The translations under genes were made by a program, and so were the position numbers. The notes under the pieces are model-generated. The model saw only the letters and a list, made by a program, of their open reading frames with translations, was not told where the DNA came from and did not search any database. DNA of 64,000 nt from Eubacteriales bacterium (GTDB lineage: Bacteria; Bacillota; Clostridia; Oscillospirales; CAG-382): contig JAZUOO010000022.1 in NCBI GenBank assembly GCA_045604705.1, forward strand, positions 3,588-67,587, written 5' to 3'. Below are positions 14,353 to 57,029 of the stretch, piece by piece (within the stretch, counting starts at the first letter, position 1; every line of letters begins with the position of its first letter).

Positions 14353-14526
14353 AATGAAAATTTCACATAGTGAAATTAACCTCAATTTTGCATTTTGCAT
14401 TTTGCATTTTGCATTTGCATTTAACGCAATAAATTTTGCATTTTACGCTATGCACAATAAGTTTTGCGTTTAGCATTGCAAGCCACGGCGTGCACAAGAT
14501 GGCACATCTTCGTCGTCACGCCCTAC
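14353..14526. repeat. intergenic repeat modules (hairpin + TTTTGCA heptamers + GTAG REP-like hairpin) between groES and groEL
   Basis: AATTTCAC-ATA-GTGAAATT hairpin, (TTTTGCA)n array, and 14482-14526 nearly identical to 53313-53357. Confidence 0.8.
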
Positions 14527-14537
14527 TTGTTTTTTGC

Positions 14538-14825
14538 TCAGTCTTCAACAACAGCGAGTATGTCCGCCTGTCTTACGATTGTATATTCCTCGCCGTCAAA
14601 CTTAACCTCTGTGCCGGAATATTTGCTGATAATAACCTTATCACCTTTCTTAACGGTCATTGTAACTTCCTTGCCGTCAACCATTCCGCCGGGACCTACT
14701 TCAATAACAGTTGCGAAGCTGGGCTTTTCTTTAGCTGCTCCCGTGAGAATGATACCGCTCTTTGTTGTTTCTTCGGCTTCGGTTGCCTTAACTATAACTC
14801 TGTCTGCAAGTGGCTTGAGTGTCAT
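14538..14825 (-). CDS. groS: co-chaperonin GroES
   Basis: [13 protein letters not shown]...TKSGIIL...AKEKP, 95 aa. Confidence 0.98.
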
Positions 14826-14873
14826 ACCGAATTCCTCCTTTGTAATATAAAAGATATAATTTTTACTCCGTTG

Positions 14874-14900
14874 TTAGCACTCTGCGTTTGTGAGTGCCAA
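14874..14900. promoter_or_regulatory. CIRCE element (HrcA operator)
   Basis: TTAGCACTC-N9-GAGTGCCAA (one mismatch to consensus TTAGCACTC-N9-GAGTGCTAA) upstream of groES. Confidence 0.95.
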
Positions 14901-14913
14901 AACTACAATGAGT

Positions 14914-14942
14914 ATTGTATTACATTAATATTGAAAAATCAA
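14914..14942 (-). promoter_or_regulatory. sigma-A promoter of groESL
   Basis: TTGATT-17nt-TACAAT immediately upstream of CIRCE. Confidence 0.65.
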
Positions 14943-15027
14943 GTGTTTTTTGACTTATTTACATTTTTTTAACATTCGAATTTTGCAGTCACGCACTCCG
15001 TGTGCTAATTCTGCATTATTCGACAGA

Positions 15028-15720
15028 TTACTTTCTGCGAAGTCCGCCAATCTTATCACATATCAGATTGTAATCACCGGAAACCAACACCTTATAAAGT
15101 TCAGCGTCGTCATTCACATCACCAAATGTCACAATACCACCGTGAGCCTCATCGCCCTCCTGGTGAAAATCCGAGCCGGAAATCATTGAAAGACCGTGAA
15201 TATCCGCCCAAAGCCTTGCAATATCGTTTCTTGATTCCTGTCTTGGGTGACCGTTGTTGACCTCAACGCCGTAAAGATACCGTGTAGGTATGACCTGCAT
15301 CCAATCCCTGAACGGATGCGCCTGATAAATAAGAATTCCGTTTTCCCTTGCAAGCGGTGCAAACTGCGCAATATTCATCTCAAAAATGTCCGGATTATTT
15401 CGCAAAAATTCCTCCGTCACACCGTAAAGCAGAAAATCATTACACTTGTCACAGCGGAATCTCAGCTCGCAGCCGAGGAACACTTTCATTCCGTACTTCT
15501 TTGCATATTCCCTGCCCTCTCTTACCGGTGCAAGATAACTGTCAATAAATTCGTCCCAGCTTTTTTCCGCCTTTTCATAGCCGACAGTGTAAATGCCGAG
15601 ATGATTTGAAATAACAATTCCGTCATAACCTTTGGCGTGGTATCTGTCAATTACATCGCAAACCGCCACATGACCGCAGCCGCTTACTTCCTTTGTGTGC
15701 ACATGAAGATCTATGATCAT
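15028..15720 (-). CDS. PHP domain metal-dependent phosphoesterase
   Basis: DLHVHT, ISNH, GCE, AHP, GSDFH motifs. Confidence 0.88.
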   Translation of the reverse strand: MIIDLHVHTKEVSGCGHVAVCDVIDRYHAKGYDGIVISNHLGIYTVGYEKAEKSWDEFIDSYLAPVREGREYAKKYGMKVFLGCELRFRCDKCNDFLLYGVTEEFLRNNPDIFEMNIAQFAPLARENGILIYQAHPFRDWMQVIPTRYLYGVEVNNGHPRQESRNDIARLWADIHGLSMISGSDFHQEGDEAHGGIVTFGDVNDDAELYKVLVSGDYNLICDKIGGLRRK

Positions 15721-16892
15721 TTCGTTTTTTCGCCTCTGTTCCCTTTTGTAAACGGCTTTTTATCTCCGAAATCCTTGAAATACTGGTAAAGATAACACTT
15801 TATCATACCGTTGTACAGCTTTCTCGCCTTATTAGAACGCTTGCCGTACAGCTTCTCGAATTCTTCCTCGCTTGTAAGAAGATACATCTGCCACGGAGGA
15901 ACAAGAGTACTCAACGTCTTACCAAGCTTCTTATAAAGTTCTCTTGCTTCCCTTATTGAACCCAGTCTTTCACCGTAAGGCGGATTGCAAACTATCGTGG
16001 TTCTCTCGCCGTTGTCAGATATTGTCAGAGCATCCTTTTGGAAAATCCTGATATAATTCTCCATCCCTGCCCTTTTGGCGTTTTCCTTTGCAAGCTTAAC
16101 ACAGTCCGGGTCAATATCCGAAGCCCAAGCCTTGAATGTGGTATCAAGTTTTACGGCATTTGCCGCTTCTTCCCTTGCATCCTTCCAAACCTTTTTGGGA
16201 ATCCATCTGAAATGCTCAGAGGAAAATCTTCGTCTTATACCCGGAGCAGTATTTGTCATAATAAGAGCCGCCTCAATGGCGATTGTTCCCGAGCCGCAGA
16301 AAGGATCCCAGGTTACAACATTTTCTCTCGGTCTTGAAAGCTTTACAAGTGCCGCCGCAAGAGTTTCACGTAAGGGGGCTTCCGCCGTTTTCTCACGGTA
16401 TCCCCTTTTGAAAAGAGGCTCACCCGAGGTATCAATCATAACGGTTGCCTTATCATTCAATATGAAGAATTCGATTTTAACCTTGGTTTCGTTTTCCTCG
16501 AACCAATCAATTCCGTAGACGCTTTTAAGACGCTCAACCATAGCTTTCTTTACTATACTCTGACAGTCGGGAATGCTGGCAAGCTGCGATTTTATGGAAT
16601 GTCCCGAATTCGGGAAAGCGTCCTTTTCTCCGATAAACTTCTCCCACGCAATAGCCTTTGTTCCGTCAAACAGCTCCGTGAATGTAGTCGCAGTAAACTC
16701 GCCCGCAACAATAAAAACACGTTCCGCACATCTCAGCCACATATTACAGCGTGCAATTGCCGTTATATCACCCTCAAAGTAAACTCTGCCATCTATTGTT
16801 TCAAGACGCTTGTAACCGAGAGCATCAATTTCCTCGCCCACAAGCCTTTCAAGTCCGAAAAGACAGGTGGCGGCATATTTGAATTTTTCCAT
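15717..16892 (-). CDS. THUMP-domain class I SAM-dependent rRNA methyltransferase (YpsC/RlmL-like)
   Basis: KRGYR, APLRETLAAAL, DPFCGSGT, NPPYG motifs. Confidence 0.9.
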   Translation of the reverse strand: MEKFKYAATCLFGLERLVGEEIDALGYKRLETIDGRVYFEGDITAIARCNMWLRCAERVFIVAGEFTATTFTELFDGTKAIAWEKFIGEKDAFPNSGHSIKSQLASIPDCQSIVKKAMVERLKSVYGIDWFEENETKVKIEFFILNDKATVMIDTSGEPLFKRGYREKTAEAPLRETLAAALVKLSRPRENVVTWDPFCGSGTIAIEAALIMTNTAPGIRRRFSSEHFRWIPKKVWKDAREEAANAVKLDTTFKAWASDIDPDCVKLAKENAKRAGMENYIRIFQKDALTISDNGERTTIVCNPPYGERLGSIREARELYKKLGKTLSTLVPPWQMYLLTSEEEFEKLYGKRSNKARKLYNGMIKCYLYQYFKDFGDKKPFTKGNRGEKTK

Positions 16893-16895
16893 ACT

Positions 16896-55652: not shown

Positions 55653-55689
55653 GACAAAAATAAGTTCTAATTTAAAAACACAGTAAGCA

Positions 55690-55726
55690 AAAAACAACCA
55701 TCCCCGATTTCACACCGAGGATGGTT
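55690..55726 (-). terminator. terminator of HPr-like gene
   Basis: Minus strand AACCATCCTCGG-loop-TCGGGGATGGTT-GTTTTTT. Confidence 0.7.
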
Positions 55727-55752
55727 TCGCATATTCATTAAGACTTACGGCA

Positions 55753-55980
55753 TCACGCCATATATTTATAAATCCTCTCCGGCAAATCAAGCAAATTCTG
55801 CGTATCCACCGAAAGCACCGTCGTACCTTGCAAATTAAGAGTAAAAATCCCAATTATGGACTTTGCATCTACCGTATCATTTCCGGAACTTATCTGTGCA
55901 TCAAAGGAGTAACTCGAGAGAATGTTACAGAATTCCTTTACATCGTTCATGGTGTTAAGCTTAACATTTATATTTATCAT
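55753..55980 (-). CDS. HPr-family protein lacking His15
   Basis: VDAKSIIGIFTL (Ser46 motif), 75 aa, no GLHARP motif. Confidence 0.8.
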   Translation of the reverse strand: MININVKLNTMNDVKEFCNILSSYSFDAQISSGNDTVDAKSIIGIFTLNLQGTTVLSVDTQNLLDLPERIYKYMA

Positions 55981-56016
55981 AAAATCCTTACCTTCTCATA
56001 ATTTTAGGTCAAGTAT

Positions 56017-56045
56017 ATTATATGATAAATTGCGAATTTTGTCAA
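56017..56045 (-). promoter_or_regulatory. sigma-A promoter of HPr-like gene
   Basis: Perfect TTGACA-17nt-TATAAT. Confidence 0.7.
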
Positions 56046-56135
56046 GTATACCGCAAAGAAATCTGCCTTTCGGGTAATTATGTACTAAAACCTCCGTCAG
56101 TTTTTGTTGATATTAACCGCAAAATGTTACAAATC

Positions 56136-56750
56136 TCAAATAAAATCCTCACATACCGCACCAAAGCTCTGAGCAATCATAACCGACTGAGCAAGGGAAA
56201 TCTTCGCACCTTTCAAATTACACGCCGTGAGATTCGAGCCATGGAAATCCACCTGGCGAATATCCGTCTTCTCAAAGGATACATTGTTGAACACGGCTCT
56301 GGTAAACTTGCAGGAATGAAGATGCGACTCACTGAAAATACAATCGCTGAGCCTTGCTTCGGTGAAATTCATCCCAAAAACATCTTTTTTCTTAAACCTC
56401 ATCCCGACAACAATCGCATATGAAAAATCACAGCTTTCAAACATTGCCCCTCCCATGTCGCATCCTACAAAGGACGAACCGGTAAGCCGACAGCTTTCAA
56501 AGGAGGCTGCAATTATGTTTGAGTTGGCAAAGGAGCAATTAAGAAAAGTACACCCGTAAAACTTAGTTCCGGTAAAATGCGTCATGGAAAAATCACAGTC
56601 ATCAAAAACACACTTTCTGAAAACCTTATCCTCAAGATCCATCGCTCGCATAGAACAAGCCTTAAAGCTCTTTTTTACAAACTCATCCCCATCAAAATAC
56701 CCGTAATCCGAGAAATCCTTATTCAAATAACTTTCTTCCGTAAGAACCAT
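56136..56750 (-). CDS. pentapeptide repeat protein
   Basis: (C/S/A)-x-F/L-x-x periodicity throughout. Confidence 0.88.
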   Translation of the reverse strand: MVLTEESYLNKDFSDYGYFDGDEFVKKSFKACSMRAMDLEDKVFRKCVFDDCDFSMTHFTGTKFYGCTFLNCSFANSNIIAASFESCRLTGSSFVGCDMGGAMFESCDFSYAIVVGMRFKKKDVFGMNFTEARLSDCIFSESHLHSCKFTRAVFNNVSFEKTDIRQVDFHGSNLTACNLKGAKISLAQSVMIAQSFGAVCEDFI

Positions 56751-56825
56751 ACCTCAAACCACCTCAAGCCCAAAACTTCACAGTCACAAAACCACCACAG
56801 GCAACTCTGTCACGCTTTGCGAGAA

Positions 56826-57029
56826 ATGCAAAATGCAAAATGCAAAATTGAAAAAATCCCCCAAAGGATACAGTGCTATTCAAAACGCTGCAATGCCGTC
56901 TGTATCAACCGCATCTTCCCTGCAGATGGTACACCTATATCGCCCGATTCCGTGCAGACAATATAATCAAATGAAGATTGCAAAGCAATCAACCACAATT
57001 ATGCATTACGCATTACGCATTATGCATTA
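56826..57029. repeat. intergenic element bracketed by inverted TGCA heptamer arrays
   Basis: (AAATGCA)3 at left; GATTGC-AAA-GCAATC hairpin and (YGCATTA)4 at right. Confidence 0.7.

Follow-up and report, generated by a model that had tools for sequence, protein, structure and literature searches.

Here we describe a family of intergenic repeats in which a tandem array of 7-nt units stands in fixed register to a small hairpin, beginning with the seven copies that a preliminary description had picked out in a 64-kb stretch of DNA. This stretch, referred to below as the window, is contig C22:3588-67587 of a draft genome (G000) of 1,867,171 bases in 68 contigs, 96.5% complete, and carries clostridial-looking genes such as YlbF/YmcA, DUF3792 and DUF5685. 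All seven copies were confirmed in the window sequence, with their coordinates, stems, loops and heptamers. Tandem Repeats Finder places period-7 arrays at 14385-14422, 29973-29990, 45445-45476, 48307-48359, 53462-53492 and 56998-57029.

Unit 1 (14332-14422, + strand) opens with the mini-hairpin cgcc-cgca-ggcg (14332-14343), followed by the linker ATACATTAAAATGA, the hairpin AATTTCAC-ata-GTGAAATT (14359-14377), a second linker, aacctca, and (ATTTTGC)5.6, after which degenerate heptamers continue toward the groES stop codon. Next to it lies a unit on the minus strand (14208-14303), in which a long-loop hairpin, GATTTCTGC...GCAGAAATT (14240-14289), precedes a tail of (CCCTAAATCCTAAT)2 that faces groEL and ends about 25 nt before its start. 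Together the two form a tail-out pair that occupies the whole groES-groEL spacer. Unit 2 (29900-29990, + strand) consists of the hairpin GATTCCCGC-(33 nt)-GCGGGAATC (29916-29966), the linker aacctca and (ATTGTGA)2.6; its tail ends 6 nt from the glgP stop codon, and both flanking genes are on the minus strand. In Unit 3 (34020-34205, + strand) the hairpin GATTTCCG-(34 nt)-CGGAAATC (34033-34082) and the linker aaccaca lead into a tail of ATTGTAC units that alternate with a 60-nt double-hairpin module (1.9 copies) and reach the stop codon of a glgD-like gene.

Unit 4 (45399-45476, + strand), immediately upstream of mutS, has the hairpin GAAAGC-gaa-GCTTTC (45423-45437), the linker aacaata and (ATTATGC/ATTGTGC)4.6. 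Unit 5 (48258-48362, + strand), a member of a subfamily that we call H2, is located within a mosaic spacer of about 1 kb that runs from mutS to mutL, and comprises a mini-hairpin, TACAATATAATC, the hairpin AAAAGC-gaa-GCTTTT (48285-48299), tacctaa and (ATTATGC/ATTGTGC)7.6. Unit 6 (53414-53497, + strand) is an H2 copy nearly identical to Unit 5, with its hairpin near 53440 and an array of 4.4 units. Finally, Unit 7 (56945-57029, + strand) combines the hairpin GATTGC-aaa-GCAATC (56976-56990), the linker aaccaca and (ATTAYGC)4.6, and its tail ends 17 nt from the stop codon of a ROK-family gene on the minus strand. On the minus strand, at 56824-56848, lies an array without a hairpin head, (ATTTTGC)3.6, about 75 nt from the start of a pentapeptide-repeat gene; it points away from Unit 7, which again gives a tail-out arrangement. 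The seven copies had been described as representing the repeat on the + strand exclusively, and this does not hold even within the window, given the minus-strand unit at 14208-14303 and the minus-strand array at 56824-56848. The former had been overlooked because its tail is a different heptamer.

Several other features of these spacers were recorded. The 60-nt unit repeated 1.9 times at 34090-34205, within the tail of Unit 3, is made of two small hairpins flanked by heptamers, and comparable double-hairpin modules are found at C29:5318 and in the groES-groEL spacer of a related genome, G002. The noncoding spacers of about 1 kb at 48122-49140 (mutS-mutL) and 53050-53990 (after the small gene that follows tgt) share long mosaic repeats, among them the hairpins agaagaatcc-ttc-ggattcttt, aaagtttgc-ttg-caaactt and cttaggga-cgaa-gtccctgag, as well as A/C-rich tracts. 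Read on the minus strand, the arrays at 48314-48342 and 45445-45473 place GCACAAT before GCATAAT and so give promoter-like TGCACA-17-CATAAT matches; every GCATAAT unit includes a near-consensus -10 hexamer. The groEL gene (minus strand) is split into two open reading frames (ORFs), 12559-13242 and 13276-14181, which match the C- and N-terminal parts of Cpn60, respectively; a frameshift, an in-frame stop codon or an assembly error may account for the split.

Scanning of the genome revealed 90 arrays of the ATTNTGC type, 52 on the + and 38 on the - strand, of 3-15 units each. Ten of them lie inside a crude ORF, and the arrays are mostly intergenic. The string (ATTNTGC)3 itself occurs 75 times (42+33), and the reversed pattern, used as a control, 0 times. 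Tri-loop hairpins with a perfect stem of at least 6 bp stand 5-9 nt upstream of 36 of 87 arrays, compared with 0.24% of 200,000 random positions, and the same test applied to the mirror side of the arrays found them at 0 of 88. A covariance model (R1), built from ten ungapped seeds, gave 62 genome matches at E<=1, or 69-70 modules once these were merged with the long-loop copies. The family thus extends far beyond the seven copies first noticed. In a scan of the 64-kb window on both strands at the gathering threshold, 0 matches to Rfam were obtained; the preliminary description had not recognised the repeat as a named element either.

The modules have a constant order of parts: a GC mini-hairpin (for example cgcc-cgca-ggcg, tcgc-gaa-gcga or ccc-gtaa-ggg), an AT-rich linker (ATACAATAAAATGAA; consensus ATACAAT(A/C)AAAT(G)AA), a perfect but variable stem of 5-9 bp, a second linker (TCAACCTCA) and the heptamer array. 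The second linker is 7-8 nt long, with the consensus (A/T/C)AAC(C/A)T(C/A)(A/G), and the register of the array relative to the hairpin is fixed, ATT always coming first after the linker. Among 31 curated copies the loop is GAA in 14, AAA in 5, another sequence in 2 and long (6-38 nt, mostly 18-38 nt) in 10. Within the heptamer GCATT is almost invariant and positions 4-5 vary, the most frequent units being ATTATGC (139), ATTTTGC (56), ATTGTGC (40), ATTACGC (25) and ATTCTGC (20).

It had been proposed that pairing is kept while the stems change in sequence, and the larger set bears this out. The 31 curated copies contain 25 distinct arm sequences, and non-cognate arms of different sequence pair in 0 of 918 combinations. 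In a column test on the ten ungapped seeds, 100% of cells pair, as against 70% in shuffles, both sides change in five of the six pairs, and the covariation score was reached by 0 of 500 shuffles. Forty of the 46 distinct hairpins are without a mismatch. The mismatches in this set comprise one forward-wobble and three reverse-wobble transitions plus two transversions, and two modules gave no hairpin call; a one-strand RNA signature from wobble pairs was accordingly dropped as a candidate, there being too few mismatches and no strand bias.

The copies that the preliminary description called a shortened variant are a young subfamily, H2 (AAAAGC-gaa-GCTTTT-tacctaa), with 17 near-identical cores and arrays that range from roughly 1 to 15 units by crude count. 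H2 was also considered as a piece of a fixed long element, an idea abandoned when upstream similarity proved to be gone within 40-80 nt. Instead, H2 copies are embedded in larger mosaics with modules that resemble repetitive extragenic palindromes (REPs), made of GTAG plus a palindrome. Furthermore, the same head may carry alternative tails, (CCCTAAATCCTAAT)n or (ATTCCGA)n, or no tail at all before a Shine-Dalgarno (SD) sequence and ATG. To judge from these sequences, array length changes fast and modules recombine into mosaics.

Two further repeat arrangements occur in the genome. One is a second family of the classical REP-like kind, in which GTAG accompanies a G+C-rich palindrome such as GTAGGGCACGACC-tgtgtg-TCGTGCC (reverse strand); it is present in the window at 48369-48401, 41316-41342 and 14484-14527 and on many other contigs, and is often joined to heptamer arrays. 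A Y1 gene resembling a REP-associated tyrosine transposase (RAYT) for this GTAG family was not found in the genome. The other is a row of about eight small hairpins at G000:C48:13840-14040, spaced by GCTAAAT or its complement and lying upstream of a PF05635 gene, a heptamer-plus-hairpin arrangement unlike the ATTNTGC units.

The orientation of the modules is set locally, the tail being directed toward the closest start or stop of an ORF and lying against it. Of 61 modules, 46 have the array tail as the side nearer to an ORF and 15 the hairpin (binomial p = 9e-5); the median distance is 30 nt for the tail and 161 nt for the hairpin. In 27 modules the tail runs up to a start codon or SD sequence and in 34 to a stop codon, frequently within 10 nt. 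Absence from convergent spacers had also seemed a property of the repeat (0 of 36 in a first, partly spurious set, H1), and this claim was dropped when the full set gave 7 of 61, near expectation.

By contrast, the proposal that orientation follows the replication strand is not supported by the genome-wide counts. The modules are divided into 35 on the + and 34 on the - strand, and 28 of 39 adjacent pairs on the same contig are oppositely oriented. Other contigs show orders such as +-++-+, -+-+ and +--+, and an uninterrupted +++++++ is seen only on the contig of the window. After correction for gene strand, most contigs show almost no GC skew; on those whose skew can be used, the C-rich strand carries 13 arrays and the G-rich strand 10, with 42 arrays on weak-skew contigs and 25 unscorable, counts of leading and lagging strand that rest on a 68-contig draft in which the replichores are not placed.

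Among pairs of modules no more than 600 bp apart, 11 are tail-out, 0 tail-in and 2 tandem; tail-in pairs are found at 0.8-1.7 kb and enclose one or two genes. In six of seven tail-out spacers the minimum-energy fold pairs both arrays as a long basal stem from which the hairpin heads branch, and the minimum free energies of these spacers, -57 to -100 kcal/mol, compare with -29 to -56 kcal/mol for shuffles.

Filled and empty sites were compared in relatives, as had been suggested, and empty sites were found at two loci. In G001 and G003 about 18-20 nt separate the amylase gene from glgP, and in G004 the spacer, of about 125 nt, holds an ordinary hairpin without the element; G000 and G002 have the element, the G002 copy missing its 3' arm. 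Between groES and groEL, G003-G005 have 21-44 nt; with a single unit the spacer of G001 reaches 143 nt, and with two units those of G002 and G000 reach 267 nt and 356 nt, respectively. The three carriers at this locus share an identical mini-hairpin, cgcctgcgggcg; their main stems differ and still pair, and their arrays differ between species. At these two sites the units have been added to spacers that measure 18-44 nt in congeners, and they persist across species. As to MITEs (miniature transposable elements with inverted repeats), the tail-out pairs are inverted repeats, and target-site duplications are unreadable at both filled/empty loci, where the flanks have diverged. A metagenome scan for strain-level array polymorphism, carried out with a 35-nt groES flank, gave no matches.

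The covariance model is multi-copy in five of the 151 genomes of the taxonomic family, three from one genus (G000, G001 and G002) and two from a second (G014 and G064), so that the expansion looks patchy and clade-limited. G001 has about 200 arrays. The bare heptamer is far more widespread. Across species genomes (ATTATGC)3 forms at least 124 stretches, and for the 80 loci listed the source labels are Bacteroidales, Prevotella, Muribaculaceae, Clostridia, Ruminococcus, Acutalibacteraceae, Victivallales, Spirochaetales and others; by the covariance model, the hairpin head of the family is present at only 4 of these 80. Of 75 cases at the listed loci, 44 have an opposite-strand ORF that ends no more than 60 nt from the tail and 23 have one that ends as close to the head side, the chance level for the strictest ORF-end class being about 12% by our own estimate. 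Seven loci in Acutalibacteraceae/Ruminococcus (L051, L083, L092, L104, L108, L118 and L128) have an analogous head, gcgaagc-TATA(T/C)AAT-CC-hairpin-CCGAC, which model R1 misses; it is followed by (ATTATGC)3 ATTCTAC, with (ATTGCTA)n arrays close by.

The reading we prefer, which we think has about an even chance of being right, is that the family is a lineage-specific, self-folding mosaic repeat that operates at the DNA level and belongs to the class of dispersed intergenic heptamer repeats, distinguished by a hairpin head and independent of any HUH enzyme. Such a repeat would spread and turn over as DNA, by slippage of the array and recombination of modules, with palindrome correction keeping the stems perfect and an HUH enzyme taking no part. 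It would be tolerated, and perhaps used, because it folds on itself within untranslated regions (UTRs) and operon spacers. Single heads would give small end hairpins, and in tail-out pairs the arrays would pair into a long basal stem that closes the entire inserted spacer, from the stop codon to the next SD sequence. Any function of the family is something that we infer from these arrangements.

A number of points weigh against this interpretation. The 31 curated copies were picked for a perfect stem, which makes their 31/31 pairing true by construction; the independent evidence for pairing consists of the column test on the ten seeds and the orthologous comparison. Gene positions were taken from crude ORF calls. 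One of the seven tail-out pairs, on contig C4, folds without an array-array basal stem, and the tails at groES-groEL in G000 are different heptamers that are unable to pair, so that closure of the spacer is not general. The suggestion of insertion comes from two orthologous loci, and neither a mobilising enzyme nor a target-site duplication was identified. Finally, a paired stem kept at one locus in three species, together with an invariant mini-hairpin, fits functional selection better than pure junk.

Best placed among the alternatives, and in our judgement still unlikely, is that the module serves as an orientation-dependent cassette for transcript ends. In the sense direction the AT-rich linker (TACAAT/TATAAT) would be a -10 box, the hairpin a stabiliser of the 5' terminus and the array a leader to the SD sequence; in the antisense direction the hairpin followed by UUCAUUUUAUUGUAU would act as a weak terminator or as a protective 3' hairpin past the stop codon, and a tail-out pair would be a terminator-plus-promoter spacer. 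This would suit the two destinations of the tail (SD sequence and stop codon), the copies that lead directly into SD and ATG (C1:5874 and C58:22235), the presence of the element inside the groES-groEL operon of three species, and a flank that is T-rich in the antisense direction only. Also, a TATAAT-like hexamer (at least 5/6) lies upstream in 47 of 59 distinct modules, most commonly 6 or 8 nt from the stem. Its distance to the stem, however, runs from 1 to 16 nt, the AT-rich context makes such matches common, no -35 box was seen, and 0 linkers were scored as promoter-like in the two scanned ranges. The short hairpins are weak as RNA (-5.6 to -6.6 kcal/mol, z-scores -0.6 to -1.9), and within the same two ranges one of six + copies was called terminator-like. 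At 74 loci from other phyla, canonical terminators stand beside the array head in 8 cases, compared with 7, 4 and 4 at control positions.

On these grounds (weak stems, the single scan call and the lack of enrichment) the intrinsic, Rho-independent terminator class was rejected. An array placed between stop codon and canonical terminator as a pattern common to the phyla, for which a handful of examples spoke, was rejected for want of enrichment. A role as backup stop codons was likewise set aside: (GCATAAT)n has TAA in each of the three frames, and arrays with at least three TAA-bearing units make up 11 of 30 at stop contexts and 6 of 16 at start contexts.

A sequence-specific protein offers another explanation for the heptads. 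The omega repressor of inc18 plasmids binds heptad repeats, and by analogy the heptads here could be sites for a protein that binds as one protomer or dimer per 7 bp and marks or insulates gene boundaries, the hairpin being its nucleation or loading site. The near-invariant GCATT with free positions 4-5 and the fixed register relative to the hairpin would both be expected of such a site, and a trans factor or mobile agent in common could explain why gut and rumen phyla share the ATTATGC array. We nevertheless consider it improbable, since no candidate heptad-binding protein was identified and the same head bears unrelated heptamers, (CCCTAAATCCTAAT)n and (ATTCCGA)n, within one genome. Moreover, as far as the excerpts of published accounts go, the same geometry accompanies wholly different heptamers in other bacteria, which speaks for a property of 7-nt arrays and not of one binding site.

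A broader version of the same idea, to which we give equally little credence, is that different phyla share a trans-acting factor, which recognises (ATTATGC)n and establishes or preserves arrays at ORF ends, with lineage-specific heads as its loading or priming sites. There would then exist, in gut and rumen bacteria, an undescribed and horizontally spreading gene-boundary system whose factor is either a protein or a mobile agent bringing one along; this, too, strikes us as a long shot. Were it true, the same heptamer in Bacteroidales, Clostridia, Victivallales, Spirochaetales and others would reflect one mechanism and not convergence.

We also doubt strongly that the arrays are contingency repeats, in which slippage would tune the adjacent gene in a phase-variable manner. 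Array length does vary widely among near-identical H2 copies and between orthologous loci, and PMC12721329 provides a precedent in Haemophilus, where an (ATCTTTC)n heptamer repeat is coupled to a 5'-UTR hairpin cut by RNase III. The neighbors here, however, are housekeeping genes (groEL, mutS, mutL, glycogen genes and a dnaJ-like gene) rather than surface or contingency genes, and half of the arrays follow stop codons.

Weakest of all, and very improbable, is the model first offered for these repeats, a single-stranded DNA hairpin element on which an HUH enzyme of the IS200/IS605 or RAYT type acts at the replication fork, reading or moving it, and whose copies share a replication strand; this is largely refuted by the orientation counts, the alternation within contigs, the close tail-out pairs and the minus-strand unit inside the window. 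In its favour, the seven flagged copies share a strand in a window with negative GC skew throughout, and REP-like modules of GTAG plus palindrome do stand beside some copies. A GAA loop closed by C:G is an unusually stable motif in DNA mini-hairpins; GAA makes up 14 of the 21 short loops, mostly C:G-closed, and the stems are perfect Watson-Crick. The genome nevertheless contains a single ordinary IS200, whose end hairpins are unrelated to the element, and no second Y1 match or RAYT-like Y1 gene. In G014 and G064, which carry the family, no gene matches Y1; G005 lacks the family and gives a partial Y1 match. The sole IS200-type Y1 gene (G000:C12:61732-62088; L014 1408-1944) has its own flanking hairpins and sits among small ORFs of phage- or island-like character. 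REP elements with a RAYT were therefore rejected, there being no cognate RAYT and no co-distribution of repeat and Y1 in G014 and G064. A non-autonomous derivative of IS200/IS605 was rejected because the two members of a pair are inverted and carry their hairpins on opposite strands, which IS200/IS605 ends do not, and because orientation alternates.

Nor did the other gene families suggested as partners show a link at the level of genomes. Four-helix-bundle (PF05635) genes occur in 40 of 61 relatives irrespective of arrays, which leaves no association at the genome level. Locally, one of the two PF05635 genes of the genome (G000:C45:5796-6328) lies exactly inside a tail-out pair, and in G020 an array is about 30 nt from another PF05635 gene. 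DUF559 is represented by an intact copy on C12 and a broken copy on C47 that accounts for two matches; a comparison of coordinates showed none of them beside a unit, no separate proximity test having been made.

Whichever of these explanations holds, the family has properties that make it well suited for finding a mechanism, if one exists, be it a mobilising enzyme, a heptad-binding protein or a role at transcript ends. A head with fixed flanks and register gives the array an unambiguous polarity, filled and empty sites can be compared cleanly in three species inside an essential operon, groES-groEL, and one and the same array, ATTATGC, turns up in gut and rumen genomes of several phyla. If there is no mechanism, the family would show how far selfish or neutral repeats can go in reshaping operon spacers, and this in a small (1.87 Mb) genome.

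Several known systems share parts of this anatomy. REPs and the bacterial interspersed mosaic elements (BIMEs) built from them, BOX elements and Correia elements of Neisseria are small multi-copy mosaic extragenic palindromes that alternate in orientation, lie within transcripts, fold, and can insert in operon spacers; the pneumococcal BOX has a variable number of tandem sub-units. The family resembles them as a small, multi-copy, foldable mosaic of the spacers. REPs, however, have a conserved GTAG-type sequence and a cognate RAYT, neither of which applies to the hairpin of this family, and Correia elements and MITEs end in inverted repeats and duplicate their targets, traits not seen here (the flanks have diverged at the compared loci). 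To our knowledge none of these elements has a 7-nt microsatellite tail. The attC sites of integrons offer an analogy in their conserved flanks, free stem and variable loop, but copies of the family are single or in inverted pairs rather than in cassette arrays; no search for intI was made. Haemophilus hmw1A likewise has a heptamer array beside a hairpin in its 5' leader, and according to PMC12721329 the repeat and the hairpin control hmw1A; it is a single contingency locus with a long hairpin made of the repeats themselves, whereas the family is dispersed beside housekeeping genes.

The closest relatives are the dispersed heptamer arrays. The short tandemly repeated repetitive (STRR) sequences of cyanobacteria are intergenic arrays of this kind, and since the work on them heptamer repeats close to gene ends have been on record; their sequences differ from those found here, and they are not known to have a hairpin head. 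The family belongs to the class formed by STRR, GGGAATC and TAACTGA repeats, with at least three tandem 7-nt units at many loci, polarity toward ORF ends and inverted pairs. For the GGGAATC arrays of Xanthomonas and the GGGGA(T/C)T arrays of Nostoc, the excerpts of PMC4692102 (Rehm et al. 2015) report dozens to hundreds of intergenic 7-nt arrays, on average 28 nt from one ORF and 160 nt from the other, on the sense strand where they follow stop codons or on the antisense strand where they precede ORFs, and without a leading/lagging preference. Many are inverted pairs and most are transcribed, no function was found, and groES is among the neighbors. On that partial account the likeness is close: in both families one ORF is much nearer whatever its strand (28 vs 160 nt there, 30 vs 161 nt here), inverted pairs able to form stem-loops are frequent, and groES is a neighbor. 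The Xanthomonas and Nostoc repeats differ in being G-rich and quadruplex-forming, and those excerpts make no mention of a conserved hairpin head flanked by constant sequence; here an AT-rich unit (ATTNTGC) keeps a set register with a covarying hairpin module.

TAACTGA direct repeats, as presented in portions of PMC4679880 (MacGregor 2015), occur in Beggiatoaceae, cyanobacteria and some Bacteroidetes. They read forward when placed immediately ahead of a start codon and in reverse when placed immediately behind a stop codon. Relatives have shorter, repeat-free spacers, other heptamers are mixed into the same spacers, and the patchy distribution across phyla suggests horizontal spread by a vehicle that is not known. 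All four traits (polarity tied to start and stop, shorter empty spacers in relatives, mixed heptamers and patchy spread over phyla) recur here, on the evidence of those portions, with another heptamer and with a hairpin head that they do not describe. The role proposed there, a site for a post-transcriptional regulator at the 5' end, would leave unexplained the half of the copies that lie past stop codons in this genome. In the parts of both 2015 papers drawn on here, the origin and role of gene-end heptamer repeats are left open. A literature search by text and by heptamer string, which did not cover the supplements of these papers, turned up neither the heptamer itself nor any account of an ATTATGC-type family from Clostridia or Bacteroidales. 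Relative to the two papers, in the portions available, what is new is the ATTNTGC unit, its fixed junction to a covarying head with conserved flanks, and its spread across phyla of the gut and rumen.

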